A stretch of 63,877 nt of DNA, counting the filler, from Kipferlia bialata (Eukaryota): assembly GCA_003568945.1 (NCBI GenBank). It is 4 parts of 4 records of this genome, joined end to end, with 100 filler letters (N's around TTAATTAATTAA, not from the genome) between each part and the next. Parts side by side here need not be neighbours in the genome. Positions count along the whole stretch, not along the records: positions 22,399 to 44,691 come from BDIP01000298.1; 3 more parts are not named here. One strand, given 5' to 3'. Position 1 is the first letter of the stretch. Each line of letters starts with the position of its first letter. Of this stretch, positions 4,496-48,577 are shown piece by piece. Under the pieces are notes generated by a model that was not told the DNA's origin, ran no database searches, and saw nothing but the letters and a program-made list of their open reading frames with translations. The position numbers and the translations under genes were made by a program.

Positions 4496-4530
<35 letters not shown>

Positions 4531-4955: not shown

Positions 4956-4999
<44 letters not shown>

Positions 5000-6365
5000 C
5001 TAATCGCTAGATAGCTCTCTGGACTCCACACCCACTGTCTACTCTCTCTCTCTCTCTCTACCATTCCTATGCCCCTGACCCCTCAGACTCCACCCTTGAC
5101 TCGACACCCACTGTCTACTCAGTCACCCTGACCAATGAGTACGGGGCAACAATAATGGATGGGAGACAGGTATGTGGGGAATGTGTTATATACACGCATA
5201 CTATCATGTCTGTCATGTGTATATATAGGTGTTGCATGGTATACCACTCTATATAGTTATATAGTGATATATATGAATAGTTATATAGTATACCACCGAC
5301 TAACCCCATTGTCCTGTCTACTATGTGTGGTTCACTTTCTATGTTACTCTTGAGGTGTACTATATACTATATGCTATATACTATATACTATATACTATAT
5401 ACTATATGAGCACTATGGCCACTAATCCACCAGGTCCAGATAGGCCTGTCTGACTCTGCCATGTGTGACATGGCATGGGATGCAGACACACTGGCATACA
5501 GTGCCACCCTCACATGCACAGGCAGGGGATGTTCATGTATACATGCTGCTGATGATTTCTACGTTGATCTTCCCACACACACCCTCACCCTCCAGACGGT
5601 GACTCTCTCCACGTGGCTGTGTACTATGCTGGGTCATCATACAGGGTGGAGGAGAGGTATGGGCATTTATACTGCACTATAATATAAATATACAGAATAC
5701 ATCATGTGATTATTATGTGATAGAAGCCTCTATACAGTTGGGAAGGGTTCATTGTTACTACAGATCCACTTCTCTCACGTCACTTCTTTAGTGTAACTCA
5801 CACTCAGCGGATATACATTTTATATATATATATACGACTATACTCTATATGTGTATTTACTTAGATTATAGTGTATAGTATAGAGTGTGTATAGTTCACC
5901 CTAGGCTCCACTACTCCTCCCCCGTGACCTCTGCCCGTATATATATATATATATATGTATATGTATATGTATATATTTATATATATATGTATATTGATTA
6001 TAGTATATATAGTCTATATATACTACGTATACTCACTCCCAGGCTCCACTACTCCTCCCCCGTGACCTCTGCCCGTGTGTCCCCTGATAGCTGTCAGCTC
6101 TACATGCCCACCACATTCTGTGCACACCTGTCAGACAGTCAGGGTAAGTACTACATGTATAGTATATATATATATTGTTGTATTAGTATATATTGTCCGA
6201 TAGTCAGGGTAAGTATTATTATTCATATGTATCCATTGGATGAGTATACATGTATGAGTATACACCCTGTGCACACCTCTCAGATAGCCAGGGTAGGTAT
6301 GTGTATAGTGTATATATACACATTCTGTATCTATATATATTATACATATACATTATACATTGAGG

Positions 6366-6407
<42 letters not shown>

Positions 6408-9278: not shown

Positions 9279-9311
<33 letters not shown>

Positions 9312-11863
9312 ACTGGGCTGGTGGCCATGGAGAAGGGCATGATACAGTACATGACAGACACATACATATATGTACAGATTCATATATATATATGTACATA
9401 TATACATACATATATACATATATGTACATATATACATATATGTACAGATACATTCAGAGACTGCTTGTATGTACAATATACGCATACTCTCACTGACACC
9501 AGGTGTCCTAGTGATTGCCATGTCATACTCTGTATGTATCAAGTGTATATACATATATATATGATATGGTATATATGTTATATACATATATATATATACT
9601 CTCACTGATATCAGGTGTCCTAGTGATTGCCATGGACAACGGGGCCACCATATACGGCCTGGAGGATGGGGTATGGGGACTCAAGCAGGTGCTGTACCAT
9701 ATTGCATAAATAGATATATTTATATATATGACCATACTTGTACCTATATCTTAATAGGGTATAGTATATACGGCCTGGAGGATGGGGTATGGGGACTCAA
9801 GCAGGTATCACTACTGAGCTATGCTCCATATGTATATATATAGAGGTGTATGAATAGTGCTATTGTATTTACGGACTGGGGAAGCAGGTATGGTCATAGT
9901 TACAATGATTAGTCATGTATTGTACTGGTAAATGTATGTGTGGAGTCATAGCAATGCCCTAACCCCCAGGAGATTGTGGTTGACCTGGGCCCGTACTATG
10001 TGCAGCCATGGGTGGACACAGATGGGGAGACAATTGTGATAGGTATATATATACATGCACATATACATATATATATATAATATACATATATGCCATGGGT
10101 GGACACAGATGGGGAGACCATTGTGATAGGTATGGACATATATTGAGAGAGAGTGTGTATATGTATACAAGTATGTATGTATATGAATGGTATAGCCATG
10201 GGTGGACACGGACGGGGATACTATAGTGATAGGTATAGTAGGGATCATATATAGGTATATATATGGTGACTTCTATCGGTGTAGAGTCACAAGACTCAGT
10301 ATCGGTATGAATAAATAGATACACACTTACACCAGGTGTCACGTACTACCACCATGTGCTTGTGTACAGTAGGGACGCTGATACACACATGTGGGCACTC
10401 AGCGATACGGTATGCGTTGGTGCAGTACACTACATATTGTGATTAGACACATTCTCTTGTGCCTCTTGTTGTATTGACATGTGGGCACTCAGTGACACGG
10501 TGAGTGTATTGAGAGTGCACTCTTTCTCTTTCTCTCTTTCTCTCTTTACAGTATAATATATGTTGTTGAATACTCTTGCACTAGTGTATGAATAGTCATT
10601 CGTGAATACACATTTATGTTTGGGATAGTGGAGTCTTACCTGTCTTACCCTCAGTTGGTTGACCCCTATCTGACCTGGAACACAGGCTATGGGGAGATAG
10701 TGGCAGTGGACAGGTATACATAGTGCGTGTATACACTAAATATTGTATTTGATAGTTAGATATATTATATATAGTATTATATATAGCACAGGCTATGGGG
10801 AGATAGTGGCGGTGGACAGGTGTGTATGTATACTATGTATGTATAGTATGTATACTATGTATGTATAGTATATACTGATATGTATAAATATGATATGATT
10901 GTGTGTGTATTCCATGATCTTTATATGCAGAGATAGTGGCAGTGGACAGGTACTGATATATATATACAAATATATATACATATATATATATATGTGTGTA
11001 TGTATAGTATGATTGTGTGTATGCATATCGACATATGGAGAGATAGTGCCAGTGGCCAGGTGTGTATATATACTATATATAGTATATACTGATATGTATA
11101 TATATGATATGATTGGGTTTATACATCATGATGCATATATGGCGAGATAATGGCAGAGTCATACACTGATACATGTATATACAGTCAGTGAACACTACAA
11201 TGCAAAGATATATTATTTATATGTGTACTGCTGACCATCCAGGGACATCATACTTCTAGTCACCATGCCCATTTGTAGTATTCATGTACTATACACACAC
11301 CTCTATATTCTAACTATTCGTGCATATATATATACATGTATGTAGTATACTGACCATCCAGGGATATTATTCTTGTCACCAACCGCTATGCCCCTCTGGC
11401 AGCATGGGTTATAGTCATATATATTCATATATATATCCATATATATTCTTATGTATATTATGTACATATAGATGTAGACATTGATATAGATATATACTTA
11501 TGTATATTATGTACATATAGATATAGACATTGATATTGATATATACTTATACTCAGGGACATCATCCTGGTCACCAACCACTATGCCCCCTCTGGCAACT
11601 TTGATATCACAGGGCCTCCCATGTATGTGTACACTAGGGATGCAGACTCCCTAAGTAAGGGAGAGAGAGAAAACGAGTATCTTAGAAAGGGAGGGAGAGA
11701 TGGAGAGAGTGAGACTGACGGTGACTGCGGGTGGACCCTTACCACCATGTATGTGGGCCCATCCAACAACCAGTTTGTGTACTCTACCATAGAGGTGGAG
11801 GATGGGACCATCCTGATCACGGACAAGTATGGGTGGGAGGTATGCGTATATATGTATATATAT

Positions 11864-11903
<40 letters not shown>

Positions 11904-13465
11904 GGACGATCTTGATCACTGACAAGTATGGGTGGGAGGTGGGTGTGGCATGTATATCTGATACTGAGATGGATATATATATATATATATATGTATGGGT
12001 GTGTGTGTGTGTGTGTGATGACCGACACTGCTATCAATAGCAATAGCACAAGAATAGTACTCACCCCCATGTCCATGTGTACACTCCTATTTGTATTGAT
12101 AACTGTAATACGTAGGTGTATATATATTATGAAGTATATATTATATCATATATATATATATATAATAATACGTAATATGTTCCACTGACCCTCAGATCCA
12201 TGTGTACACCCTGTCTCCAATGGACAACACTCTGGTGCAGGTGGGTGTATATATACATAGTATATATATGTATAGTGCCCTGTCTCCAATGGACAATATA
12301 TATATGTGTGTATATATATATATAGTATATATATAGTATATGTATATAGTATGTACACTCTGGTGCAGGTAGGAGTAAGGACATTTGTGTATGTACTAGT
12401 GTATGTATATACGAGTGTAAGTATGTACACCCTGGTGCATGTAGGAGTATATATATACATATATATGTATTCACATATATGTATACACATATATATAGTA
12501 TTAATATATATATACATATATTTTATGTGCATGGTGCAGGTTTAGGTGAACGTAGCCAATAGGTGGCATGTACACATTCAACAAGACACTGGTACTGGAA
12601 GGAGTATAGTTATAGTATAGTAGCACGTACCCTAATGAGTCGGAAACTCTATTCATTATCTGTATACCCTTTATTCAGATTGAATGACACGACACTTTAC
12701 TATTCTTTGTCAATGTATTGGTGCCATATACATATGTATCATCATTCCGATATATATATATATGTATATGTATAATGCCAGGTCCGCACCCTGTCGTACG
12801 ATGGCTCAGAGCCAGGCCACTCCACATACACATACTTTGGACACCAGGCTGCATTCAGCGGGGAGACGGTGTATGCAACAGGTATATATATACTTGATAA
12901 TGTATAGATAACATATATCATCTGTTTACTATGCACTATATGTTTTGCGGCGTTCAGGTGGGAATACAGTGTATGCCACAGGTATGGGTATATATATATG
13001 TACTATATATATGTACTATATATATGTACTATATATATGTACTATATATATGTGTTATATGTATAGTACTATATGTATAGTACTATGTAGTATACTCTGG
13101 AATCCTAAGTCCGGCTTAGCCGATACCAAATACTGTACACTGTTTACATATTCATTGTATACATATATATGTATTTTCCTAACCCCATATATATATGTAT
13201 ACTATATCCCATATCTATATGTATACTATAGACAGTGTAGCTTCCTGACCCCATCGCTGTCTTCACCGAGACCCTTGATGCCCCTGTCTCTATATTAACT
13301 AGTGTATACACTGTATAGTATATACTATATATATATAGTACTGCATGCATCTAACCCCCAGCCGTACTGACCGACACCGTTGACGCCCCTGTGTCCATAG
13401 TCACACTGTACAGTGGACCCAGCACAGGTATATATACATATATATTACATGTACATATATATATA

Positions 13466-13496
<31 letters not shown>

Positions 13497-15533
13497 GCTG
13501 GATACAGTGGACCCAGCACAGGTAAAGAGAGTGATGTAGTGTATACATACACACACACATATATATATATATATGAAGAAAGAGAGACATATCCGTCTCC
13601 CGCCACCGTCCATTTCACAGACACAGTTGTACTCTCTCTCTCTCTCTCCATACATATATATTGATAGAGTCTATCTAATATCAGCTGTCGTGTCTGACAT
13701 ATCCGTGTCCCCCTCCACTGTCCATTGTTCAGACCCATCTGTCACATTCACAGTGACACTACTAGACGAGGATGGGGATATAATCCAAGAGGTATGTATA
13801 TATATTTGTGTGTGTGTGTATGTATATACATGTGTATGCGTGTTCAGACCCATCTGTCATATTCACAGTGACACTCCTAGACGAGGACGGGGATGTGATT
13901 CAGGAGGTACTAGTATATGGATATTGATACTAGTATATGGATATCATACTCTATATCATAGAAGATTGATATATTGATACTAGTATATGAATATATGCAT
14001 AGGGTACACGGTGGTCTCACCCCTAGGACCTCACCTCCCGCCTCACCTTCAACTGGATGTGCACCATACTATATACACACAATATATATATTTACTATAT
14101 ACTGTATAATACTGTCACAATATATATATGCTATATACTGTATGCTCTATAGTAATGACCTAACCCACCAGGACCTCACCCCCCGCCTCACCTTCAACTG
14201 GATGTGCACCATACTATTTACACGATATACACTACATATACTATACACTATATACTATATACAACACTAGTGCCCCCTAACACACTAGGATCTGACCCCC
14301 CACCTCACCTTCAACTGGATGTGCACGATGTATGACCCATCGAGTGTAGTATACGACACAGAGATATGCACATACACTGTGGTGTATGGTGATGCAACAG
14401 GTATTGTAGACATATACATTTGTATATGTGTGTATATATGATATAATTGTGTATACATGTATGACCCATCGAGTGTAGTATACGACACAGAGACATGTGC
14501 ATACACGGTGGTGGATGGTGATGCAACAGGTATTCATTTACTATGCATTCACTGTCTATACACTGTATACACACAATATATGACCCAAAGAGACTGTCAC
14601 AGGTTGTGTACACATGTAGCTGTGTATAGTGCATGTAGTATAGCGTATAGTACCTATTTCTTTCCCTTGCATTTCTACCTCCCACCACAGTCTTTGAGAT
14701 TACATATACGCACAAGTGAATACATATACTTAGATACGTTGCACATATATATATGTACCCCCCCCCCCCAGTCTGCACTGCCAGTGTGGGCGTGTCTCTC
14801 TCTCTCTCTCTATCCATATATATATACTCTACCCACTGTATACACACATACACACTCATATGCAATAGTCATAGTGTATATGTGTCTATATACATGGTAC
14901 ACATACCTATATCATAGAGAGTATACATATATATATTCTTACATGTATATATGTGTCTATCTCCCACCCCAGTCTGCACTGCCAGTGTGGGCACCACCCA
15001 CATATATACATATATGTATAATGAATGCGCATACGACGAGTATCATTCCCCTTGTACCCTCATTATCTCATACCCCAGTCTGCACCGCCTATATCATAGA
15101 GTGTATATATATATATATATACACTTATATGTATATATGTGTCTATCTGATACCCCAGTCTGCACCGCCAGTGTGGGCTCCAGCTACTTTGGTGTGTACA
15201 TTGAGAGTCAGACAGCAGAGGGGTTCAACCTGTCACAGAGCGGGTGAGTATAGTATATATGCTATTATTATATATGTATATATATGTGTGTGTGTGTGTG
15301 TGTGTATGTGTATATGTCTATGGAGCTAATGGGTTCAACCTGTCACAGAGCGGGTACGGAGATGTGTCTATATATGTCTGTAGATTTGAGTGCTAGCTGT
15401 GAATGTGTCTAGTAATCTCACCCTCATTACCAAGGTCCCCTTGCCTGTGGGGTAGACTGATGTATCTCTTTCTCTCTCTACATATACTTATATTGACTCT
15501 CTGTCCACAGTTTCCATGCCTGTTGAGTTCAGT

Positions 15534-15571
<38 letters not shown>

Positions 15572-17650
15572 CCTATATCTAACCCCTAGTGCCCGTATCC
15601 CCATGCCTGTTGAGTTTGCTGATGTCTCTCATGTGTCACTGCTGGACGGGGATGTGTACTATGGGAGTGGAGACCCATTATTCATAGGTATTATATATGT
15701 ATGTATATATATATGTGTGTGCGGGTATGAATGAATATATATTTACTGAGGGAGTGGAGATCCATTGCTCATAGTACGTTATATATTTGTGTGGTATATG
15801 TATACTATATATACTCGCCACAGGCATATACATCTATGACTCCCTTGGCTCCCCCATCACAGATGGCAGAGTATATACAGAGTATATATACAGTATATAC
15901 ATATATTTATACATATATACAATATACTATATATATGTGTGTACTGTATATTCTCACCACAGGCATATACATCTATGACAGCATGGGTTCTCCTATCACA
16001 GATGGCAGAGTATATACAGTATATCTATATATATATCACGGCTGGCAGAGTATAATCCTCTATACTAAGTATATATACTAACCCCAGGCATCTATGTCTA
16101 TGACAGCATGGGCTCCCCCATCACAGATGGCAGGGTGGTCAGGACAGGGATATCCCTCGAGGACTTCACAGTGGCCACATACCTATACCCAGGTATGAAT
16201 ATATTTCATATAGTACATATATATAAATATACTATATTCCATATTCATACTATGATGTCTTCAGTTTAGTGTATACCCGTACATGTGTATGCTCACCCCA
16301 GGCCATGACTACTATGCATACTATGCAGGTGACGTTGATACATGCCGGGCAGTGACACTCACAGTATATGTGGCACCGGACAGACACACGAGGTAATGTA
16401 TATATGGAAGTATGTGTATATATATATATATATGTGTGTGTGTATGTATTATATGTATTAATATACACTCACTGTATATGTGGCACCGGACAGACACACG
16501 AGGTATCTCTCTCTCTATATATATGTATATTTATATATATATAATAGATAGTGAGGATGACTGGTATGTCATACGTACGGTGTACGGTGTGTACTATCAT
16601 TATATGTACATCTACTATCTACACTCTAACCGCTAGTGAGGACCGAAATGCCCTTTACCACACCTATGTATTCACTACTCATATATAGATATGTGTGTAT
16701 ATGTATATATATACTATACAGTGTATACTCTACACCATCCTCACCCTCCAGTGAGGATGACTGGGATGCCCTCATTCCTCTATTATCCTATTAGCACATC
16801 AGGCATACTCTTTGCACTCTCTCTCTCTCTATATATGTGTGCTGTATACAACCTCTTACCCCCAGTGAGGATGACTGGGATGCCTTACCACACCTCTGTA
16901 TTAACTATATATATGTATACAAGTATGTATGAATATGTATATATATGTATTCACACTCTATACACCCCTCTTACCCCCAGTGAGGATGACTGGGATGCCC
17001 TGATACCATACCCAGTCCCGGTGCAGGTATATATGTGCATAGATATATAGTGTATATACAGTGTATATTAGTATATATTATGCTCTATGTGGATGTATTG
17101 ATGCCCTGATACCATACCCAGTCCCGGTGCAGGTGGGTAGATGTATCTACATGTATATATATGACTATGATATATATGACTATGGACAGTGACGCCTCAG
17201 TACTCTATTCAGTGTTTAGTGTGCACTATTTATGTCAACTTCCTCGTATATATATATATATATATATACATATATGTATATATTTGGACCCTCATGGATG
17301 TCCCTCACCATACGTCTACACGGATGTGTCCTCCGTGGGTGGGAGATATACATATGTACATATATATGTGTGTGTGTATATATATCAAGATATATAGATC
17401 AAGATGCACTATACATTGTCCTAGCCATGTGATCCTAACGCCAGGTCTACACGGATGTGTCCTCCGTGGGTGAGAAGATATCATTCCCTTATATTGCATA
17501 TGTATGTATACCTATCTATATATATATACATGTATGTGCCTTACTCTAGGTCTACACAGATGTGTCCTCTGTGGGGGTCTATCCCCCAATGGTGGCCATA
17601 GGGCACACGACAGACTTTGTACTCACAGGTACGGAATATATACATATTTA

Positions 17651-17693
<43 letters not shown>

Positions 17694-18256
17694 TAAACAT
17701 ATGGTGTCAATGGTGGTCATAGGGCACAGGACAGACTTCACTCTCACAGGTACAGTGGATATATTCATATATTATATGATGTATATGTACACATGTGTAT
17801 ATATATGTATATATTGTGTATACGCCACAGTACAGACTTCGTACTCACAGGGACGATGTCACCTGGGGTGTGACATGTACTCTTTTCATATTATATATAT
17901 ATATATATATAAGCATGGCTCCAATACCAGGTTACGACTCTTGTAACAACGTGGTCCCTGTTGACATGTCCATGTCCGTGGCGTGGTGGCCTGAGACAGA
18001 GGGAGTTGCCCTGTCTAAATGCACCTTCAACACACCCGAGATAGGTTAGTGGATGTCAATATATATGTATATATACATATATATATGTATGTATGTATAT
18101 ATACACATTGTACATATAGTGCCCATGAGACAGAGGGGGTGGATTCATCGAAGTGTGTGTTCAACACTCCTGAGATAGGTTGGTGAATAGTGTGTGGTTC
18201 AACACTTTTGAGATGTCAACTAGCCAGTCTCTCTCTCTCTCTCCCTCTCTCTCTCT

Positions 18257-18303
<47 letters not shown>

Positions 18304-19114
18304 ACACACACACACACTCTATATATATATCTATATGTATATGTATGTGTATCCCAATCTAATTCTAGGCGATGTCAACTACTCTGTCACCATGGACATA
18401 CCAGTGGACAGGGTCAATGAGAGGCCAGTACTAGAGGTAGATATGTATATATGTATCAGTATACTTATACATATGTGCATATGTATGTACTTATTGTATA
18501 TTGATGGATATACCAGTGGACAGGGTCAATGAGAGGCCAGTCTTGTAGGTAGATATATGTATATATATACATATATCAGTATACTTATACATATACATAT
18601 GTATGTGATAGTATATACACTATAGTCAATGAGAGGCCAGTCTTGGAGGTATGCATTTACTACTGTGTCACTGTACATATGTGTATATATATGTGTGTGT
18701 GTGTGTGTAATTAGTTGTATATACATATATATGTGGATGTGCCAGTGGACAGGGTCAGTGAGAGGCCAGTACTCGAGGTGGGGTATATCAGTGTATCTAT
18801 ACATATGTAAATAGGTATATATATGTGTGTGTTAGAGTGTATATATACATATATGTGTGGATATATACATATATATGTGGATGTGCCAGTGGGCAGGGTC
18901 ATTACAATAGGTATACACCATTCCCTCTCTCTGTCGTAGGATATATGCCCATATACATTTATTTCCCCAGATGTACCCCTCTGACCCCATCATGGTCACT
19001 CCCTCTCTCTCTCCATATGTATATATGTATATATCATATATATATATATACATATCTAACCCTAGATCCATACCAAGCCACCTAGCGGTCCTGTACCCGA
19101 CCCCATCATGGTCA

Positions 19115-19155
<41 letters not shown>

Positions 19156-19664
19156 GTATACACACCTCACCCTAGATCCATACTGCCCCACCTAGCGGTC
19201 CCACCCCTGACCCCATCATGGTCACCCTCTCTATGACACTGGGCACAGTCACAACGGCAGATGTACACCCTACTGAGGTGTGTCTATATATATGGAGAGA
19301 ATACAGCTCTGGTGACACCCTGACCATCACATAGATAGATATATATGCTTATATATCAACTGTTAGACTCTATTATATATATAGTCATTCATGCTGAGTA
19401 CTAATACCTAGGTAACCTCCTGTTCCGGTGACACCACCCTGACCATCACATATATTAATGCTTATATACATATATATATATATGTAATGACTTAGTAATC
19501 TAACTCACAGGTCACCTCCTGTTCTGGCGACACCACCCTGACCGTCACCCCCTTCAACGAGAGTGGCACTGTGATGATAGACACAGAGGCACAGCTCAGC
19601 GTGTACTTTGAGGATGAGCCTGAGGAGAGGTATGTATATAGATATATAAAGACTGTATATACAT

Positions 19665-19708
<44 letters not shown>

Positions 19709-20579
19709 GGCACAGCTCAGTGTGTACTTCGAGGATGAGCCAGAGGAGAGGTATATATATGCATAGATATACTATATATATATACTTTTACATGTTATAG
19801 AGAGAGAGAGAGAGAGAGGCATTGAGGATGAACCAGAGGAGAGGTATAGGGCAGTTCAAGATTCATGAGTGAGTATAATTAGTGTATGTATGTTTATTGC
19901 ACTTACTCCTAGGTACCTTACCCCTCTGTATGTCAATCTATCTTACCATACACTCTCTTGTATATATTTTCATACATATTTTTACCCTCAGGTACCTAGC
20001 CCGTCTGTGTGAGACCTGTCATACTATAACATCTGATATGCATATGATACTGATACTGACCCCCAGGTACCTTACCTTGCCCGTCCACGTGTCGATCTCT
20101 CCATGATATACACTATGATGTCTATATACACCATGATGTACTAATCCCATTGATAGTGACCCTCAGGTACCTAGCCCGTCTGTGTGAGACCTGTGTGCCT
20201 CTGTCATACTACGTCACAGTCGGGGACTACTGCGGGGTCATGTACGTTAGTATGTATCAGTTCTTTCTCTCTATATATAGATAGATATAGATAGGTAGAC
20301 CATATTCTATATGCCACAGTCGGGGTCTATTGCACTCCAATGTGAGTTGCTGTTGTGTGATACATATACAATGTCTGTATATGTATAATGGTATACGCTG
20401 TCATACTATGTCACAGTCTACTGTGGGGTCATGTGAGTAGTTGTGTTGTGTGTACTGTTCTGGTGTACTCATCTCTCTTGCTGCTCAGGTGTCTCCTCTA
20501 CATTTCTCTCTCTCTACATATATGTTATGTTACATTTTTTGCATATTCCAGGGACCGAAACCTAGTTGTGCTCGCAGTG

Positions 20580-20614
<35 letters not shown>

Positions 20615-21160
20615 CTCTAGGCACCGCAACTTGCTGCTCAGGTGTCTCCTCTCTCTCTCTATGTATATATACATATGAGTATATCGCTAACGCTAGGGAC
20701 CGTAACCTAGTTGTGGCTGTTGCCTCCCAGACCACCCCAGTGTCAACACTCACAGTCACAATGGGTATGTGTTGCTATATCTATATATATGACACATATA
20801 TGTGGTGCTATACACTATATGCTACATAGATATCAGGTACCATATATAATGCTACATATATATCATGTGCCATATATATGAGTATACATATATGTTGCCT
20901 CCCAGACCACACCCGTCAATATAGTGAGAATGAGTATGTGTATACCATTGTATACCATTGTATCTTTGTAACAGTCTATGTTTATGTAAAGTGAGAGAGA
21001 TGGTATCTATATGGTATGTATCCATTCACCCACAGTCACAATATATATATATATTTGTGGTATTTGATGCTTCATATGGCCTTGCAAATTGGTATACACT
21101 GACCTCAGTCTACTTTGCCCTGGATGTATTATATATATATATATTATTGGTATATACATT

Positions 21161-21191
<31 letters not shown>

Positions 21192-22058
21192 TCACCCCCA
21201 GTCTACTCTGCCCCCTGGTGGTACTATGCCCTGGTTGTGTGTCTGGGCATGGTCACTGCCATGGGTATCCTATGTTACAGAACTAGAGGTAGAGGCGTCT
21301 CAATATATATATATAGTATAATTAGTAGATATGTAGTACATGCATACATGTATATGTGTGTGTCTGGGTCTGGTCATTGCCATGGGGGTCCTATGTTACA
21401 GAACTAGAGGTGGGGCTATATATATATATGTGTGTACATAGTATAGTAGTATAATTATATCTATAGTGAGTCCTGTGCTACAGAACAAGAGGTAAAGGCG
21501 TCTCAATATATATATATATAGTATAATTAGTAGATATGTAGTTCATGCATACATGTATATGTGTGTGTCTAGGGCATGGTCATAGCCATGGGTGTACTGT
21601 GCTACAGAACCAGAGGTATATATATATATGTATATGTCAACAGTGTCTTGTGCTATATTGATATATAGTATATATATAGTCCATGGGCGTCCTGTGCTAC
21701 AGTACTAGAGGTGGGGCATCCCTATAGTATATATAGTGTATATATATATTACCTATAGTATATATAATCCATGGGGGTCCTGTGCTACAGAACCAGAGGT
21801 GGGGCTACATGTATATGGGATATTGGATATCATATATATTGGATATATATTGGATATCATATATATAGTATATATATAGTCCTTGTGTCCTGTGCTACAG
21901 GACTAGAAGTGGGACCTCTCTATCATATATATAATATATTAATGTAGTATATAGCATAGTACCTATATATGTCTCACCCCTCAGGCAGGGGTGGCTACAC
22001 CGCTGTGTCCAGGGACAAGTGGGCACGGGAGCAGGAGAGAGAGACAGAGAGAGAGTAG
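247..22058 (+). CDS. Large multi-exon type-I membrane/surface protein, 5'-partial, with putative FG-GAP/propeller-like and Ig/filamin-like repeats, a C-terminal TM helix and a short tail
   Basis: The exons checked join in phase at GT..AG. Examples: 247-346 VTLDISDPYYPSAVFDTLP; 760-1028; 11557-11839 DIILVTNHYAPSGNFDITGPPMYVYTRD; SVSPSTVHCSDPSVTFTVTLLDEDGDII. TM exon 21202-21288 reads YSAPWWYYALVVCLGMVTAMGILCYRTR. Last exon 21985-22058 reads GRGGYTAVSRDKWAREQERETERE*. Not every junction was verified, and the domain names are by-eye inference. Confidence 0.75.
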
Positions 22059-22562: not shown

Positions 22563-23076
22563 TCCCTCTCTGACACTGCCACTGATATGGCCTCTCTGGC
22601 TGTACTGGTGGATGAGAGCGGGGCAGCAACAAATGCAGCAGGTATAGTCTTTCGTATATATGTATGATACTATGTGTATTGTAATGACTTGTCTCTCTGG
22701 CTGTACTGGTGGATGAGAGCGGGGTAGCAACAAACGCAGCAGGTATTCATTGGATTCTTTTGGTTCATTCCTCTCTCTCTCTCTCTATATATACTCATCT
22801 AACTTCAGGTGTCTGCATTGCCCTCCAGGCATCTTCCTCTTGATATATACGTTAATATTTATATATGTATGTATTGACATCTTTATATGTGTATCCCTCA
22901 CCTCAGGTGTCTGCATTGCCCTCCAGGCCTCCTCATCTGATGAGACCCAGGACAGGGAGAGGGAGAGGGAGAGAGAGAGGCAGGGGGAGACTGGAGGTGC
23001 AGGCATGGACCCAGAGCAGGCAGAGAGACTCATGGCGATGCTCGGAGCAGTACTTGCTAAGGTACTATCTCCTTAA

Positions 23077-23123
<47 letters not shown>

Positions 23124-26100
23124 ATTCTAGGGTGGCCTTGGTACCAATGCCATTGCATCCTTGATGGACCAGCAGACAGGGGCTAGGGGAGGTACATTAT
23201 ACTATAGTATATACATATATATATAAGGATATATATATATATATGTAGTGTATAGTGTTATGCCATTGCATCCTTGATGGACCAGCAGACAGGGGCTAGA
23301 GGAGGTACAGATATAGTTGCATGTATATATATGTACTATGATTTCTGGTTATAACACTAGTCTTCTCAGAACCCCCACGTTTCCTTTCTCTCACCAATGT
23401 CACTGTGTATATATATATTAATGTTAGTATATTAGAACCTGACTCCAGCTGACCAGGACCACACCTCTGATGTGGACAGGGAGACCAACGCCAGAGAGAC
23501 CATATCTCGGTACGAAACCCCATGTCACATATCACATGAATCATTTTCTTTGTCAAACATCTTATTTTCCATTCTAACTTGCAGTGGCTTCCAGCAACGC
23601 CGCACACAGTGTCTGGCTGCACTCAATGACCAGGTAACACCCTTCTCATACCATTATCTCTTGTTTTCAAGGAGGGTCTTTGACCCTATATATTATATCG
23701 TTATTGGTATTGGTCTCAACATGTTATATGTACTCCTTAGAGGAGGAACTACCCCAAGGGTCTCTGGCTAAATAGTATATATAGTATTCAATATTTAGTG
23801 TGTATTGCTGACTACTAAACCCTAGGAGGAACTGGCCCTAGGCAGGGTCTAGTCCTCGGCAGTAAATACATATGTAAACTAACCAATTAACTATATACTC
23901 AACCCTAGGAGGAACTGGCCCTAGGCAGGGTCTCCGGTCAGACCAGGGATGAGCTCATGGCTAGATTCAGTGCAGAGAGGAGCAGGTACACACCTACACT
24001 ATACACCGTACACCGTACACCGTACATCGTCTAATTACCTAGGCTTGAGGAGGCACTTGCTGAGGAGGGCGCCCAGCAGAGAGCATACCTTGAGGTACGC
24101 TGTAGTGTTATAGTACTGTACGAACTAGTTCGATCTGAACATACTTAGTATGAATGCTTCTATGCCCATACAGTATTCTCATGCATCAGGCCCAGCTTGC
24201 TGCCAGAATTCTTAATATTTGTTATATTTGTTTTGGATCACTGTGTTTGTCGTGTGTTCTCGTGTGTTAGGGTCAGTATAAATATGAATAACACATATAG
24301 TGTTCTCATGTGTCAGGCCCAGCTTGCTGCCAGAAGGAGGCGGAAGGAGGCCCAGCACAAGTTGGCTCTCGAGGAGGTAAGTGAAATTCATATGCTAATA
24401 CTACAAAGTCAATATCACACGATGAACATGTGATACATGAAAGTGTTGAGAATTTGTATATATCATCCACTGACCACGTAGGAGGCCGAGGTTGAGATGC
24501 AGACCAGGCACACCGAGGAGAGGCAGGCCATCGAGGAGGTATGGGTATTAGACTCTTTCTCCTAGTGTTCAACTTTTGTAACCGTTAGGACATTGCCAGA
24601 GATGCCTCTGAGCTGGGTGCCGAGTTGGAGAAGAGCCTGGCCTCAGACGAGGAGCAGAGAAGGTGAGTATTCCTAATGGTATTCTGATTGTATTCTCTCT
24701 TAGTTTCTGTATCAGTATCAGTTCAATTACCTTTACCTTCGAATTGTGTATGTGTGTTAAACACACTGCATTTCCAATCCATACCACTATTGAGTCTTGT
24801 TTACCCCTAGATCCCATTATTCTATTAACCCCAGGCGTGACATGGGTGCCGAACAGCAGCAGGAGGCAGCCACATGCCAGAACGACCAGGAGAGAAAGGC
24901 TCTGCTGAGGTACTGTCTCACTGACTCATATACTCTCCTCTGTATATAACCTCCTCAGTATTTGGAAAGTACTTTACTTTACTTTCCCCCTTATTGTCAG
25001 GCAGCACGAGAAGGAGAGAGAGTCTCTGGAGGCCAGGCTGGCCAGGGAGAGAGAGAGGCAGAACGCCCTGCTGCAGCAGAGGCTGACAGCTAGGTATTTT
25101 CTAATACAAGTATAATTACAATTTTCGTAATAGTGATATGTTGTGTGCTTATCACAGGCGCCGCCGTCTCCTTGCCGAGCACGACATTGAGTCCAACAAC
25201 GACATGTTTGCACACGTCCAGAAGAAGCAGGTTTGTAACACTACCAAACTCTCTTTCTCTCTCTGTGTACTATCGTAATGTGTACAGCACCTGTGTCTGT
25301 ATGTCCTCACACCAGGAGCTCCAGACTGCTATTGCCGAGATCAGTGCCGATGAGCATGAGCAGCAGGTATTGCCATCTCTCTCTCTCTTCATGTCTACCT
25401 AGCTTGTCATAGAGCGGTGTCATACTTATTAATTTGTTCTCTCTCTCTCTCTCTCTGTCATATTCTTCCTATACATGTCTAATCCCTAGGCCCTAGCCGA
25501 TGCCCACCAGGAGCAGTGCCAGGCCAGACAGACAGCACTAGAGCAGCAGGTACATACTATGTATATACAGTATATATAGTTACACAAAAGAAATCTGCCT
25601 TTGGTGGGAATCGAAGCCAGATCTTTCGGAGAACCGTCTCACCCTTAGAAGCAGACTCTTGCCCAGGCTGTGGCTAGGAAGGGTACTCTGACCTCTGCCA
25701 ACGAGATGCTGCTGTCCCACATGTCTCACTTGGAGGTATGGTAGATATTTGTTATACATAGACTCTTTTTATACATGCACTTGCCCTGTGTGTATGTATT
25801 TGTTTGGTATGCTGTATACATGCATTAACCCCAGGACCTTGACGCTGACAGGGCCAGGGAGAGGGAGAGGCAGATGGCTGAGCTTCAGAGGAAGATTCAG
25901 GTAACAACTCCACTAGTCCAAGTACAAGTACACTCCATTGCATGTATATATATAATTGCCCTTGCCTACACTGCGTTTACTAGTTTACTAACCCCTGTCC
26001 AAGCGCCGCCACAACCTCGCCAGCCAGAACAGAAAGGGTGGTGTTGCCACTGCTCAGGCCCTTGATAAGCTGAAGGTACCCCTCCTATATATATTATGGT

Positions 26101-26236
26101 TATTTGGTCATTGTTATAGTGTCTCCACACGGAATCGAACCCACGCCAGGCCAGTGAGGAGCAGGGCATGCAGGCTGCACTGGAGGAGGAGAAGGCTGGT
26201 GCCGCACTCGAGCAGGAGACCGCCCTGGCCAAGGTA

Positions 26237-26287
<51 letters not shown>

Positions 26288-29200
26288 CTAGCCCCCTTTT
26301 CACCCCCAGAGAGCTGCCAATGAGGAGCTCAGGGCCAGGCGCCAGCTGAGGCAACAGGTATATATCCCTGTTTGTTTATGTTTGTATATATGTTACTGTA
26401 TTCCGCTTATTAGTAGGTCACCACCTCCTCTGGTGCTGAGAAGGCCAGACTGGTACAACAGGCCACAGAGAGACTGGCATCCATCGAGAACCAGGTACCG
26501 TCCATACTGAACATCTTTTGTATTAATATGTATCGACATATATATATATGTATGTATACCTATTGACCCTCAGATGGACGCCGAGCGTCAGCGCACCCTT
26601 GCCCAGCTGGCTCAGAGACTGGAGGCCAAGAAGAGGTTTGGACATACAGTGTATTATAGGATACTAATGGCACATGTATGATGAGTGGGTGTATGTATTT
26701 GGGCACCTAACCTTACCTCTAGGCGCCAGCAGATTCAGATTGAGCAGCGCAGGCGCAAGAGACAGATTGGACTGGATCAGGTGCGCATACATCAAACTAG
26801 ATTTGGTTGACTTATGTTTCTTTGTAAAGCTTTTCTCACTCTCTAAGTCCAGTCCTCATCCATGGCCGATGCCTATAGTTCTCTCTCTCTCTCCCTCTCT
26901 CTCTATATATATGTATTTGTATATTTGTATATATATACCCTAACCATCAGGTATATTCCTCTTTCTCTCTATATATATATAAATATGTATATACATCCTT
27001 ATGTCAGGTCCAGTCCTCCTCCATGACTGATGACCAAGTGGCCGATGAGACAGTCGAGACAACATACGACCCAGAGGTATAGTCATATATATACATATAT
27101 GTATGTATATAAGCTCTGGGGTTCTCATCGTCTCTGACCCTCTCTTCTCACTCTTCAGCTTGTATCCGAGGTCGCTGCTGCTCTCGACAAGGCCCAGGCC
27201 CAGGTACTGCATATTCTATCCATATTTATCATTCATTCATGTCTTCTCTCCCTCTACACCCTTTTCTCCAACCCTCAGGTTGCTCAGGAGGTGCAGGAGG
27301 AGCCTGAGAGCGACGATGAGGAGGTACGGTTATCTCTCTCTCTATCTCTCTCTCTCAGCCTACACCCTTATTCTGACTTTTTTAGGAGGCCCTCAAGCAG
27401 CAGGAGAGAGAGAAGGAGAGAGAGAGACAGATGCAGCAGGACGAGGAGGAGCTTCGTAAGGACAGCCTTGAGGAGAGCAGGTAATGTGCAGTGTTTCTAA
27501 TTATTGATAGGAGAGGGAATCGAAACCTGACCCTCAGGCGCTCCAAGGCTAGGCTAGAGGCCCAGATGAAGGCTGAGTTGAAGCGCCTCGAGTCTCAGGG
27601 GCAGGGCTCCGAGGATCTGCTGCTCGCTCATGAGAAGAGGTACTGTCTCTGTCTCTCCCTATCTTAGTATTCCATCTTGTGTTCTACTGTCTCAATTGTG
27701 TGAATTGTCCTAACATGCCAGGCAGAAGGAGTTGACTGCCATCATGGAGGAGGAGCAGGCCAGACAGGCTGAGCTACTCGAGCAGAGACTCGCTGCCAGG
27801 TATCGTTAGTATGAAAGAGCATGTGTCCTCATTATGTATGTTTATTCTTTACGTGACTAACCCTAGGCGCCGTCGTAAGATGCTCGCCGTTCAGCGCTCT
27901 GAGCGTGAGAGGAAGAGAGAGAAGGAGGCAGCCAAGGAGGAGGAGAGAGCAGCGGCAGCCAGAGACAGGTGTGTACATGACTCGCATTCATTCACTTATA
28001 CATTGATATATGACTCATTCATTTACATCCCAGGTCTGCCGGTGCCGAGAAGCAGGCCATTGTATATTTCATTTCTTGTATTCCAATTGTGTATGTACAT
28101 ATATATATGTATATATACTATTATTCTATCAACTAACCCCTCCAGGTCTGCCGGTGCCGAGAAGCAGGCCATTGTGGCAGCCCTCGAGATCAGGTCTCCC
28201 AAGGCCGGACAGGCCTCAGGAGGTAAGTATGTACACGTCACGTACATGTTATACCATGACCAATATATGTATATATACAATTTGTAAGTGTAAGTGTTAC
28301 CCCAGGCTCCTCCTCTGCCCAGACCCAGGCTGTATCCGATGTAGTCGAGATTGCAATGCAGAGAAGGTATAGATTTATATATATAGATATATCTCTATAT
28401 ACACTCTTTACATGAATACAAATATATTAATATTTTCATGAACTAAGTAGTTATAATATGTGTGGAGTAGTGATAATAGTATTCTTCTGTCTCTCACATC
28501 AGGCACAGTGTTGAGCTCCAGGACCTGATCCAGACTCACGCCACTGAGAAGAAGACAGTCGCAGCAGCTGCTAGGGATGAGGTAAATAGTCTGATTATAT
28601 ATGTATTGTATGATTATATATGTATTGTATATCATATTGTATATGCTGTGTATATACCCATGCCACTGAGAAGAAGACAGTGGCAGCAGCAGCTAGGGAT
28701 GAGGTATTGAAAACCTGAAAGATATATACATATAACATTCAGGCCATGCATATACTATATTCAGTGTATTAGAAGAGTGTTAGAGTGTCCTCTTAACTCC
28801 CAGGTCATTGAGCTCTATGAGAAGAAGAGAGAGGCCATGTTTGAGAGGTTTGGCAGGGCCATCTCAGAGCTCTTCCAGGGGGCTGGTGCCAGGTACTTCT
28901 CTCTCTCACACGCACACTGCTGCTTGACGATAGTGATCCCGTCTCTCCTCTGTTCTCGTTTTGGTACTATGTCCCTTTCTTTGCCTCACCACCAGGGCTG
29001 ACCTCTCTGAGATTGAGAGGAACAGACAGGCACTGCTCAAGAGCCAGGTATGAAGGAGCCTTATGTTATATCATATCCCTGTTACTTGATATCGTTACAT
29101 ATATATCATGCATGTATGCATCTTTTACTTCAATCTCAATGCATATTTAACCGTAGGCCGCTGAGACTGCCACCCTTGAGACCGGTCTGGAGACTGCCAC

Positions 29201-29433
29201 GTCAGATGCAGTCAGGGAGGCACTCGCCGATCTAGACTCTAAGCAGGTGGGGTATATATATATATAGAGAGAGAGAGATGCAGTGAAGGAGGCACTGGCA
29301 GACCTGGACTCAAAGCAGGTATTGAATATATATATGTATATATATATTTATAGAGAGAGAGAGAGAGAGATGCAGTGAGGGGGGTACTGGCTGATCTAGA
29401 CTCCAAGCAGGTGGGGTATATGATATGATATCA

Positions 29434-29469
<36 letters not shown>

Positions 29470-32400
29470 TTGTCTTACCCTAGGCCCAGCAGCGTTCCAG
29501 GCTCTTCAGACAGCAGGCCAGGGACAGGAACGCAGCCATCAAGGTGGGTCTCTCTCTTTCTCTTATCCAGCAGATTGCCCAAGGGCCATATCTATATATA
29601 TAATTGTGTATAGAAATGCAGCTATCAAGGTGGATAGATATCTGATATAGACCTAGGGAATCAGTTATCTCTTTCTCTCTCCCTCTCTCCCCCCTCTCTC
29701 CCACATTCTCTCTCTCTCCCATTCTCTATCTCCATCTTACCCTAAGGAGCTCTTCCCTATCTTCGCTGTGTCCTCAGACTCTCTCTCTCTCTCTCTCTAT
29801 CTCTCCCTCTCTTATATCTAGGAGCTCTTCCCCGACTTTGCCGAGTCCTCCGACTCCCGAGAGGCCAGGAAGAAGAGAGAGCTGGCACGGTTCAGAGAGG
29901 CCATCAAGGCGGAGAAGGTACACATGTATATTTACATCATGTGTGTATAGATAAACCGTTTACATGTCTTATGGGGCCTCGGTCAGCCCTAAAGCACTGG
30001 AGCTGGAGAGAACTCTATCCTGTATGTTCCTATATGTCAAATACTCTATCATATGTATGGTATTTGTATTGCGTATGTAGTATTTTCTTGAACACTCCCC
30101 CTCACCCCCAGACCCAGGAGCTGGAGAGACTGCACAAGGAGAGGCAGGAGGCATTTGCCCAGGTATAGTGATAATATATATGTATATATATATATATATA
30201 TATATCAGTATAGTAGTATAGTGTATAGTATGAGAGGCAGGAGGCATTTGCCCATGTAGCATATATATATAGAGAGTCTACTCTCTCTCTGTCTCCCTCT
30301 TACTCTTTAGGAGCAGCGCCACATGCACCAGGAGCTGTACAACACTAGTGCACAATAGTATAGTGTATTGGCATATTATCCTTTTCTCTCTCGGTCTTAC
30401 TCTTTAGGAGCAGCGCAACATGCACCAGATGTTTTTTTTTCTCTCTCTCCACATGCACCAGGAGCTGATCCAGATCCAGTCTGCATACGAGGCAGAGCAG
30501 GCCGCACAGAACCAGCAGGTATTATATATGTATAGATAGAAGGATAGATAGATAGAGAGATTGTATGCATGTGCTATCTATGTAATTATATATATATCCA
30601 GTCTGCATACGAGGCAGAGCAGGCAGCTCAGAACCAGCAGGTATTATACATACTATATATGAAAATACCAGCAGGTACAGTGTAGTGAAGAGTATACTTC
30701 ATATACATACACTACATACTCTTTTAATACCCTTACCTCAGGTCTCAGCAGCCGAGGCCAAGCTCACACACCAGCAGGGCAAGGTATGATACTGCTCCTA
30801 CGTTCTCTCTCCGTTAGTATATATCTATCCATTTTCAAAATGTTCACTATTTGTCTACATCTCTCTCTCTCTCTCTCCCTCTGGCCCCCTTTTACCTTAG
30901 GTCCTTGCCAGGCAGAGAGAGCAGCAGGAGAGGCAGCTCGACAATGCAGTCACCAAGGACCAGCGCCAGGTACATATACCATATACAATATCCAGTTACA
31001 ATGTACATGTACTATATAATGTATTTATAGAGAGACCAGCATGAGGTATACATATACTAATATGTAAAAATGTACATACATCTCTTGATATTGTTGACAA
31101 GGGACCAGCGTACCCATTCTCTCTCTCTCTCTCTCTCTCTGTATCTCTCCTTCTAGCCCCTTATGTCAGGCACTCCTCAGAGAGTTTGAGGCCAACACCA
31201 CCCAGCTAGAGTCTGCCCTGACCTCTGAGAGGGACAGACAGATGGCACAGTTGAATGCCAGGTATATATGTATATATATATGTATATATATATGTATATA
31301 CATGGTGAGAGAGAGAGTGTGAGTCTGCCCTGAGCTCTGAGGGGGACAGGCAGATGGCACAGCTCAATGCTAGGTACACTTTGGGTACTACTGAATATGC
31401 TATATGTGTATGGTGTAAATAGTTCCTTATATGCTGAGAACACTATTTCCTCTAAACTAGATGACATTTACTATTAATGTGTTACTGGAATACACTCATT
31501 CAAATATACATACCCAACCCTCACCTGTATATATATATATATATTTATATATTTATATATATATACCCACCCCTCACTCTAGGCTCCAGGCCAGGCGCGA
31601 TGCCAAGAGGAACGCCAAGATCAAGAAGGTTGGTGGAACACATTTGCAGATAGTCTCTCAGATTTCAAGACGCAACAAACTGTTCTCAAGAGGTGTTTTA
31701 TATGGTATGGAGTCACTTGACCTCACTCAAGTAGTATAATAGTATATTCTTATATACTTATTCTCTATCACTATCCCTCGAATACTTACCCCTAGGCCCA
31801 TGCCGAGATGAGCGACATTCTCAAGAATCATATAAGTATTCTCTTCTATTGTACGATGATTCTAACTTAACACTATATAGTATTCTAACCCCTAGGCCCA
31901 GGCCGAGATGGGCGACAGACTGAAGCAGCAGAGATTATATATGTATACATACATGTATTCAATTACATATATATATATATATATATATGCGAATATGTAT
32001 ATATATTTCGATTCTTATGCTAGGCCCAGGCCGAGATGGGCGACAGACTCAAGCAGCAGCGGGAGGCTGACCTGGAGAGAGAGAGGCAGGAGGAGAGGGA
32101 GAGGGAGGCCCAGCTTGATCTTGACGTCAGTGACACTGATAGCACAGCCCCAAACACGCCACTCAGGAGGTATATACATGTATAATCACTCAATACTAGT
32201 CTGTCTTAAGCATCTCACCCCAGCCGTGAGGGTCCCTCCAGCCGCATCCCCAACACACCCCACATCGGGGGACTGCCCAAGGTATAATCCGATATACTTA
32301 CATATATATGCGTGTATGTAAATATATGTCTACATATACATATCAATATGTCCCCAACACACCCCACATCCGAAGACTGCCCAAGGTAATGCAACTCATA

Positions 32401-32708
32401 TGTATCTTCATTACGTGTATCTCTTATATATCGTATGTTTCTGTCATTATTATGGCCCCTTATTCCAGAACCAGTTTGAGACCCCTGTCCCTCAGCGCAC
32501 TGCCACAGAGGGAGAGAGAGAGGACGATGAGTACAGTGCCTCTGAGCCATCCCTGGAGTCCGAGGATGAGGGTGAGTACAGTGAGGGAGAGGGAGAGGGA
32601 GAGGGTGTGTCCATGGACTCAGTCTCTCTTGATGCTCTGCTGGAGATGCTCAGTGAGCACCCCTTGTTCGCACAGCTGCTTGAGGTACTCAGGAAGGGAC
32701 AGGAATAG
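22563..32708 (+). CDS. Long multi-exon coiled-coil protein, 5'-partial, function unknown
   Basis: In-phase exons include SLSDTATDMASLAVLVDESG, MDPEQAERLMAMLGAVLAK, AQLAARRRRKEAQHKLALEE, LLEQRLAARRRRK and IELYEKKREAMFERFGRAISELFQG. The last exon ends EHPLFAQLLEVLRKGQE* (TAG at 32706-32708). Composition is E/Q/R/A/L-rich. Confidence 0.8.
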
Positions 32709-38932: not shown

Positions 38933-40599
38933 ATATTAGCCATGGGTGTGGTGCTTCCTGGTATCAGAGGCTCAAATATACACAATTAGTAATATATACA
39001 TATATAATGAGGGAGAGAGTAGAGGCAGTACCTAGTACGCTGCCTGCACTGAAGTCTGGGGTGCCCCACAGGTGCACATCTCTCTCTCTCTCTCTCTTTC
39101 TCTATCTGTCTATCTATATATATATACATGTACACACCTAGTACACTACCAGCAGCGAAGTCTGGGGTTCCCCACTCGTGCACATCCATCTCACTCCAGT
39201 CCACAAACCTGGGAAATAAGGGGGTAGGGAGAGAGAGAGAGAGAGAGTCCGGTGGTCCAACATAGATAAAAACAACTGTATCAAGACTATGACTCACTAT
39301 CGGTAGTATTTCTAAAGGCGCCAGCCATACATACACTTATCCGTACCATGTTGTGTCGTAGGGGAAGTTGATGGCGTTTCCGAAGGAGATGCTGGGGTTA
39401 GACTGGTGGCATACAAATGTAGAGATACGGATGAACTGATAGAGAGAGAGAGAGAGAGGTCCGAAGGAGATGCTGAGGTGAGAGATTGGGGGGATAACAC
39501 ATGTATATAGAGTAAGAACCAGAGAGAGAATGGGGTAGAGTGTAGCAACATAGTATAACTAGCAATATACATACACTCGGCAGTGTCTATATAATACCTA
39601 AAGTCAAAGGGCAGGTACTGATCCAGGTCCCTGTCGTGGTCATTGTACATGCGCCAGTTGTTGCCGTTGAAGCCATAACCATCAACCTATGGGGTTAAGA
39701 GAATATGAAGAGAGCAAGAGACAGAGAGATGACAGAATAACAGTAAGTAACAGAGAGTATACAGCCAGGTACTTTGATCTGAGCATGGGATGTATCCACT
39801 CTAATATGGACTATATACACATATATATCTGAGTATGCATACATAGTACCTGCGAGGTAACCACTTCCAATACCATGGCCCTGATGAAGCCATCGAGGTT
39901 GAATGCATCAGTCATATATACTATATATAGTATATNNNNNNNNNNNNNNNNNNNNNNNNNNNNNNNNNNNNNNNNNNNNNNNTAGTATATACACATATAT
40001 GTATAACTATTATATACATATACAGTACCTGAGAGGTTACAACCTCAAGCACCATTGCCCTGATGAAGCCATCGAGGTTGAATGCATCAGTCAAGGCATC
40101 GATGGAGTCACTGTCAGTGTATGTCTCATTGCAGAGTCTAAAGACAGTCACAAGATCTGGATATAAGGGTCTAGAGAGCGAAAGAGAGAGAGAGAGTCAC
40201 TGTCAGTGTATGTCTCATTGCAGAGCTTGAACACAGTCACAAGGTCTGGATATAAGGGTCTATTGAAAGAGAGAGAGAGAGAGATGCACTTACCCTCGTA
40301 GGGCTGGGGATCCAGGGTGGGGTCATCCTTGGACATCAGCTCGTAGACGTGCCAGTACTGGCCTGGTATAAGCATAAGAACAAGAGGGCGCGGGTTCGAT
40401 TCCCATTGCCGTATAAAAGGGTGGTAAGAGAGATAGAGAGAGACGTACGCATGTAGTAGTTCTCCATGTTGCGGTAGGTGTCGGTGTCATCGTCGATGTA
40501 CTGGGGTGAAAGGATGTAGGGGGGAGGAGAGAGAGAGAGAAAAACAATCTTTAGAATAGGATTCTTTCGAAAGAGGTGACGAGGGAGCGGAAGAAGGGA

Positions 40600-40632
<33 letters not shown>

Positions 40633-46625: not shown

Positions 46626-48577
<1,952 letters not shown>

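Follow-up and report, generated by a model that had tools for sequence, protein, structure and literature searches.

The window, by which we mean the whole stretch of 63,877 nucleotides that was analysed, comes from Kipferlia bialata, a free-living fornicate protist, and consists of four scaffolds (1-22298, 22399-44691, 44792-58408 and 58509-63877) with a single genuine gap inside them, at 39936-39982. We built exon models for four genes, with one open frame each. Gene A (247..22058, plus strand, 44 exons) codes for a protein of 1384 aa with a hydrophobic stretch close to its C-terminus and without a Pfam match, and our model is identical to public model P0004 at 1384/1384 aa. Gene B (22563..32708, plus strand, 47 exons modelled) codes for a coiled-coil-like protein, the exon borders given being those of our model with its open frame. 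The third gene belongs to the CotH family (PF08757; 37023..44540, minus strand, 23 exons modelled) and has an EGF-like N-terminal part; it shows 43% identity to the Chilomastix homolog P0002, with which the model is collinear, and it includes public model P0001 exactly. A protein kinase gene (46626..48577, minus strand), GSK3-like by its motifs, served as a control.

When each exon was aligned, ignoring frame, to both of its neighbouring introns, with a score cut-off that let through 48 of 10,230 pairings of unrelated exons and introns, we found 158 partial exon copies in 72 of the 111 introns of three genes. These copies, hereafter echoes, number 104 in gene A (40/43 introns), 20 in gene B (16/46 introns) and 34 in the CotH gene (16/22 introns), while the nine introns of the kinase gene hold none; all echo counts refer to these three genes within one window. 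They have a strict polarity: 71 are copies of an exon end lying downstream of it, 57 are copies of an exon start lying upstream, and 30 are internal. The reversed arrangement was never seen (0/158), nor was a copy touching both exon ends (0/158), and in all 24 introns holding both kinds the exon-end echoes come first. The 30 matches that lack a splice-site anchor, some of which are chance or repeat matches, were excluded from the main counts. Echoes have a median length of 33 nt and the median unit is 112 nt long, with no bias to multiples of three (45/35/48 by length modulo three); at 47 of 128 echoes the far end adjoins sequence with a dinucleotide period, such as makes up 21% of intron positions, and a single exon can have up to six different echoes. 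Gapped (11) and stop-bearing (3) matches are found in gene A, and there are none among the 54 matches of genes B and CotH.

The spacers between splice sites and echoes have a 5th percentile of 44 and a median of 74 nt; these lengths resemble those of echo-free introns (50-120 nt), and the core running from the last echo GT to the first echo AG is never shorter than 48 nt. The GC-richer scaffolds (44792-63877) contain one close direct repeat as against 138 in the first 44.7 kb, and echoes are nearly lacking in a run of 15 introns halfway along gene B (24377-26780). The density of echoes may follow either intron AT content or expression.

Exon 14 of the CotH gene is flanked by echoes on both sides. 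The exon in use (40029..40156, minus strand) agrees with P0001 and is matched by a spliced contig with 0 other letters. Its 3' echo (39850..39914, minus strand) consists of the exon end followed by GT, and the codon alignment of 39914-39850 with the exon end at 40093-40029 showed eight differing letters in seven codons, all of them silent, the same 21 residues (peptide TDAFNLDGFIRAMVLEVVTSQ) being encoded by both, as the original prediction had it. A TA-rich spacer, within which lies the 47-N scaffold gap (39936-39982), separates the exon from this echo. On the other side, the 5' echo (40194..40243, minus strand) carries AG and then the exon start, with four codons that differ, one of them R/K.

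Other pairs that had been singled out in the original prediction mostly stood up as well. In gene B, the exon at 29157-29246 is followed by two 3' echoes (29276-29318 and 29368-29410; 29157..29410, plus strand) with a common breakpoint, and the stretch 29277-29318 differs from the exon end at seven letters, six silent and one R/K. The exon at 11557-11839 lies between a 5' echo (11362-11401) and a 3' echo (11897-11938; 11362..11938, plus strand); all three differences in the latter are silent, whereas the former, for which only silent changes had been listed, does have four of these but also one replacement and a 1-nt deletion. Both differences in the echo at 30596-30640 are silent, and an AGC/TCC serine switch relative to the exon is indeed present at 15824, in the first of two 5' echoes (15824-15872 and 15963-16011) that have a common end point upstream of the exon at 16088-16192 (15824..16192, plus strand). 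Some echoes had been said to carry stops, and a stop codon does lie inside the echo at 1217. Six 3' echoes follow the exon at 21202-21288 as a mosaic array (21202..21907, plus strand).

We also noted several unusual junctions and fragments. A CotH intron (42680-42354, minus strand) starts with GT and ends with AT, with no AG close to its end, and the 5' echo at 42444, whose flank differs, likewise has AT. Across this intron, which is likely a non-canonical GT-AT intron, our model keeps its collinearity with Chilomastix, and P0001 begins one exon further on. At 30311-30518 (plus strand), two exon-start copies (30311 and 30408) are absent from the modelled exon 30462-30518, whose start may have moved to an internal CAG, or which may read through 33 nt in frame from 30408. 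At 120-178 (plus strand), a copy of the preceding exon's end is fused to a piece of the next exon (247-345), in a junction like those between echoes. In gene A, the exon at 5434-5536 has a possible GC donor at 5522 (plus strand), 15 nt upstream of its GT donor and, like it, in frame, and a 21-nt AG-GT piece resembling a mini-exon (20621-20641, plus strand) is similar to the start of the exon at 20697 and absent from the public model, with a partial copy upstream at 20477. A degenerate tandem unit of about 135 nt occurs in three copies at 33190-33531; they may have come, as echoes, from a minus-strand gene outside our models (about 33100-35500), within which an echo-like pair (34425/34533) was also seen. 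Finally, short fragments that look like the T-loop of a tRNA occur in introns or at scaffold ends (around 22262, 25610, 26130 and 27515, and at 40390-40410, 43125-43140 and 43240-43255). ARAGORN called no tRNA gene, and the fragments are possibly relics of a tRNA-derived element.

The original prediction held that echoes differ from their exons mostly at silent sites. Over the 158 matches, the differences at codon positions 1, 2 and 3 number 82, 81 and 292, and in the 128 splice-anchored echoes 121 of 2829 0-fold sites differ (4.3%) as against 164 of 723 4-fold sites (22.7%), a ratio of 0.19 (exon-bootstrap CI 0.145-0.24; gene A 0.22, gene B 0.14, CotH 0.15). We relied on these counts rather than on dN/dS, which at 0.16 scores multi-hit codons leniently. 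In our neutral null the echo mutates everywhere and the exon at silent sites, and the same detection is applied; 400 runs, covering four mutation spectra including a strong AT bias, two ages and two exon constraints, gave mean ratios of 0.48-0.61 and never a value below 0.39. Similarly, third positions account for 66.9% of the observed differences (257/384), compared with a null mean of 42-50% and a maximum of 54%. The silent excess is thus real against a simulated neutral expectation, and it is stronger than the original prediction had put it. The null implied by the accompanying argument, that a decaying copy should accumulate mostly non-synonymous changes, asked too little: silent sites change in the exon as well, and third positions already make up 42-50% of neutral differences on average.

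Several trivial causes were rejected. Alignment trimming is ruled out by using nt 16-30, counted from the splice site, to choose the echoes and only nt 1-15 to score them, which gave ratios of 0.13-0.19 with 10/104, 6/86 and 3/69 matches dropped where the near block was unrelated. Mutation bias is ruled out by the four spectra, and the 4-fold spectrum is flat (73 transitions and 91 transversions). Counting shared differences only once leaves 56/59/223 unique events by codon position, and repeat-induced C>T mutation is ruled out by the symmetric direction of change (96 AT>GC and 94 GC>AT). The 30 unanchored matches had a higher ratio, 0.45-0.55.

Ordinary neutral decay with the exon alone protected, or else an assembly artefact joining two haplotypes, therefore has to face the absence of any simulated value near 0.19. 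Our weakest result, an untrimmed scan in 24-nt windows that has no null of its own, did reach 0.39 at its loosest threshold (range 0.28-0.39), its ratio being inflated since spacer is counted for echoes shorter than 24 nt, and the focal echo adjoins a gap across which no contig was found, the contig comparison having begun at 40026 and run upward. DNA contigs were compared over 40026-41995, part of the CotH gene, the locus being found in one sample only. Those of 971, 425 and 418 nt hold exon and echo together with 0 other letters at depths of 421-448; in this second assembly of a DNA run, echo and exon stand on single contigs (records 4, 7 and 8) with 0 differences and even depth. The contig carrying the focal echo (X1 record 1; 690 nt, eight other letters against the exon) has a depth of 466, like that of neighbouring contigs, and other echoes share single contigs with their exons. 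Moreover, a haplotype mis-join would not yield echoes that break off in mid-exon against spacer DNA. We consider decay or artefact extremely improbable as the source of the pattern.

The splice signals of the echoes have been kept. GT follows 64 of the 71 exon-end echoes and AG precedes 51 of the 57 exon-start echoes, and a branch-like motif accompanies 63% of echo acceptors, compared with 81% of real acceptors and 9% of other intronic AGs. The median acceptor strength is 8.2 bits for echoes and 9.5 bits for real sites, and the echo site is even stronger than the exon's own at 22/71 donors and 18/57 acceptors. The flanks, in contrast, have not been kept: the exon's own flank is the best match for the echo flank in only 10/71 exon-end and 13/57 exon-start cases, and in seven exon-end echoes of at least 20 nt that are identical to their exon, flank identity is 0.31 against a background of 0.33. 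The 4-fold difference stays at 0.21-0.25 in every class of flank similarity. Conversely, two spacers in the array of exon 21202-21288 are 66/68 identical, while the exon-like parts beside them are 14-15% apart, with 3/21 differences (all silent) and 8/53 plus a gap. Since flanks are diverged at identical echoes and spacers are alike beside differing cores, the cores must have been exchanged independently of the spacers. Each junction of an echo has the look of a working one with a history of its own.

The silent bias is also present on the echo branch itself. Changes private to echoes comprise 47 silent ones in 431 sites (0.109) and 40 replacements in 1498, very similar at silent sites to those seen on the exon alone (22/192, or 0.115, with 9 replacements in 656). 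Echoes of the same exon differ from each other in an 18/20/99 pattern by codon position, and the echo pairs with a common breakpoint (18 of 49) show 11/10/41. GC3 is 0.645 in echoes and 0.647 in exons, as against a GC content of 36-40% in introns, and in the CotH gene amino-acid changes fall on residues common with Chilomastix in only 3 of 24 cases, these residues making up 98 of 255 covered codons (p=0.005). From the private-change counts we estimate that about 85% of the echo branch would have been under exon-like constraint. The conservativeness of the amino-acid changes is weak (BLOSUM -0.38 vs -0.61 to -0.72, p 0.03-0.09), and the correlation between pN and pS is weak or null (rho 0.10). 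Along the echoes, the gradient expected if decay were greater far from the splice site was not significant (0.044 vs 0.050, p=0.54); in bins, decay climbs from 0.027 to 0.063 and then falls.

Echoes could alternatively be snapshots of the exon taken over time, the exons themselves changing silently far above the neutral rate, for instance under selection to differ from their decoys. Such a process would yield silent differences between echoes and a symmetric direction of change, and silent counts are indeed overdispersed (chi2 194.5, 127 df). However, judging from the ratio of 0.19 and the comparison of flank classes, silent substitution would have to proceed at some 5-20x the neutral rate; exon-alone and echo-private silent rates are equal, and branch points that look functional within unrelated flanks are left unexplained. 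We therefore regard snapshots as very unlikely, and the suggestion in the original prediction that echoes are earlier states of the exon fails as a sole account, since the changes private to echoes, and those between echoes, show the same silent bias as those that separate echo from exon.

Could the echoes be used directly? Minor or stage-specific splicing, or a programmed collapse of the DNA, would bring echo letters into mRNA and so expose them to selection. The near full strength of the echo splice sites, the missing gradient of constraint and the lack of gaps or stops in genes B and CotH all agree with this. A 2029-nt contig of run X2 (record 9), presumed to be an RNA run, proved to be spliced and contains exon letters only across seven CotH exon pieces including exon 14; the echoes lying between these pieces are skipped, the 5' echo at 40194..40243 among them, and the first 585 letters fit 561 nt of nine downstream exons plus a tail of about 25 nt, so that there is no room for the 65-nt focal echo. 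It should be noted that assembled contigs drop minor forms and variants. In addition, an insert that is open and in frame would result from only 9 of the 128 choices of echo site, an exact copy-choice splice is possible in 3/128 echoes against 5.7 expected, and neither the unit lengths nor the gapped and stop-bearing matches of gene A fit a translated product, while the DNA contigs carry the uncollapsed form where programmed collapse is concerned. Rescue by recursive splicing or re-splicing was rejected: exons ending in AG (39/49 with an echo, 64/71 without, p=0.12) and exons starting with GT (12/44 with, 13/76 without, p=0.24) are not enriched. RNA structure hiding the decoys was also rejected, predicted pairing being alike for real and echo sites (p about 0.4). 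Direct use thus appears quite unlikely, and the alternative offered in the original prediction, that echoes are still expressed, finds no support in this single spliced contig, which covers seven CotH exon pieces, may lack minor forms and contains no echo allele.

Taking together what was observed directly, namely the anatomy and polarity of the echoes, their silent bias and kept splice signals, the mosaic arrays and the skipping in one transcript, we lean towards the view that echoes, half-exons with a splice signal, are fragments of other working alleles rather than decayed copies. By a slight preference, we propose that they start as tandem duplications of a junction and that diverged alleles in working order then overwrite them, time and again, with their own exon ends. 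The first echo would come from the duplication in tandem of roughly 110 nt, one break lying in the exon and the other in dinucleotide repeats of the intron. Only layouts with one complete exon would survive, so that exon-end copies come to lie downstream and exon-start copies upstream, a polarity that we observed and for which this filter would be the cause. Splicing picks the sole AG-GT pair that encloses the whole exon, as seen for the seven CotH exon pieces. When diverged haplotypes meet, an echo would pair out of register with the other allele's exon, because exon-like sequence is the only good homology between them, and conversion or unequal crossover would overwrite the echo, sometimes together with the donor's splice flank, the array expanding or shrinking in the process. 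It is as exons that the donors would have taken on the coding signature, and the echo itself need not be under selection. It is the birth of echoes, the identity of the donors and the diversity required that we infer here.

A toy population model of such inter-allelic refresh (100-250 diploids, 10 loci, whole-echo conversion, 3/27 replacement sites tolerant), with theta of 0.25-0.3 and refresh at 100-200x the mutation rate, gave p4 of 0.20-0.25, p0 of 0.03-0.04 and a ratio of 0.15-0.17, as compared with observed values of 0.23, 0.04 and 0.19. The fit would imply a silent diversity of about 20-25%. Several points weigh against overwriting by other alleles: the model needs a silent diversity at least as high as the highest value in the literature compared, the expected gradient of decay along the echoes is not significant, and the flanks have diverged far beyond silent sites, so that either microsatellites must turn over fast or the flanks must be old and the cores refreshed. 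As for donors, none was found in the DNA contigs over 40026-41995, in protein candidate searches or in two metagenome scans for a relative, in which none of the 28 and 55 pattern matches was confirmed. The original prediction that echoes are pieces of other functional versions, swapped in, thus remains the best-fitting reading, with its donor allele not found among these sources.

Exchange might instead have been confined to one chromosome, the copies being kept coding-like by second-order selection through occasional conversion or collapse into the exon. Mosaic arrays do show exchange among units, and such selection would also keep GT and AG. When we modelled it, however, none of the 15 settings (theta from 0.02 to 2) took the ratio outside 0.47-0.81, because exchange fast enough for selection to act also erases the silent differences, and we find this account highly improbable.

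The main rival to overwriting by other alleles is that the donors were diverged working copies within one lineage, either the homologs of a long-asexual or hybrid diploid or paralogs, later lost or homogenised, with DNA or spliced RNA/cDNA as template. Its signature would be the same as that of the favoured explanation. With an RNA or cDNA template, identity would stop at the splice site, as it often does here even for identical echoes, and the genome paper reads two k-mer peaks as diploid (PMC5874029). On the other hand, no Kipferlia paralog was found among 1200 candidates for P0001 (205-653 aa only) or among 68 candidates for one gene A exon, both clusters being single-member, and no variant exon contig was seen over 40026-41995. 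Nor did we see a second haplotype in the DNA contigs of that interval, weak evidence given that contigs drop variants. Three states occur at 8 of 279 multiply covered third positions, which with up to six different echoes per exon indicates many donors, and an RNA template leaves the branch points in unrelated flanks unexplained. Diverged copies within one lineage are therefore an unlikely source.

More speculatively, at most junctions of AT-rich genes exon ends and echoes may belong to a single pool that recombines, the echoes being rewritten at about 100x the mutation rate from other working alleles (as DNA, or as spliced RNA stopping at the splice site) and swapped back into the working slot. 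A single genome would then serve as a library in which the exon ends and splice junctions of the species are stored, and would record cryptic sex and a silent diversity of more than 20% in a fornicate; we advance this extension as a doubtful one.

If echoes do stem from other alleles, the population diversity and recombination of a protist known from one culture could be read from a single genome, and the silent diversity implied, about 0.2-0.25, would equal the highest eukaryotic value in the literature compared. The spliceosome of this organism, in which few proteins are recognisable (87 of 174 searched; PMC6679479), tells the true site apart from as many as six decoys that nearly equal it and have a like exon context on either side. 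This offers a natural setting in which to weigh exon definition against intron definition, the organism's basic introns being short. Padding with junction copies is also a route of intron growth distinct from that driven by transposons. Lastly, silent-biased divergence of an unexpressed copy is usually taken as proof of expression, and here it is present in copies that the one spliced transcript compared leaves out.

Silent partial copies that look coding and can serve as conversion templates are known from pseudogene-cassette systems such as chicken immunoglobulin genes, trypanosome VSG genes and Borrelia vls, which diversify protein sequence at few loci. The Kipferlia echoes differ from these in that their differences are mostly silent, they occur in unrelated genes and no switching was seen. 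Amino-acid diversity of the kind cassettes provide is lacking, given the low 0-fold divergence beside the 4-fold one and the avoidance of conserved CotH sites. The idea that introns act as an archive or cassette reservoir of exon variants can accordingly be kept only as that of a passive record, the function of a reservoir being unsupported since mostly silent variants give no new protein.

Our literature search, which mainly covered work outside subscription journals, found no description of such echoes. In the main text of the Kipferlia genome paper (PMC5874029), which counts 124,912 introns and describes k-mers in a diploid pattern, the terms 'duplicat', 'heterozyg' and 'polymorph' never occur. 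Intron gain by tandem genomic duplication, in which an exonic AGGT supplies both new sites (PMC3265369, PMC3443670), likewise involves duplicated exon sequence and splice-like sites. However, it makes a new intron, whereas in Kipferlia the padding goes into introns already present, splicing passes over the copies, and such a splice would be possible in only 3/128. Mutually exclusive duplicated exons (PMC9013439) are also intronic homologues beside the gene's own exon; as described there, they are whole exons with both splice sites and are often expressed, while echoes have one splice site and a median of 33 nt and are absent from the one assembled spliced contig. The repeat-bridged introns of the zebrafish AC/GT type (PMC4691745), in which complementary repeats at the two intron ends bring the true sites together, offer little parallel, GA and CT runs occurring together in 2 of 111 introns here.

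For the regime that allelic donors would require, a precedent exists in Schizophyllum commune, which combines a synonymous diversity of 0.20 (PMC4576712) with crossovers concentrated in its conserved exons (PMC4209137). Those crossovers are in-register and allelic and the abstracts of these reports describe no junction echoes, while the diversity in Kipferlia is a model inference. The nearest anatomy is that of the 37-bp VNTR in intron 7 of human F7 (PMC1557585), whose unit spans the exon-intron boundary, so that the true donor is followed by unused copies; there the 5' pseudo-sites, though functional, go unused and the most upstream site is used. According to that report, F7 involves one locus, the donor side only and identical pseudo-sites, whereas in Kipferlia both sides and most introns of three genes are affected, a coding-selection signature is present, and the likeness between units in their intron part breaks down, as the few best matches to the exon's own flank show. 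The Kipferlia echoes are thus junction-spanning tandem duplications at very high density, and their coding signature is not one that neutral decay produces.
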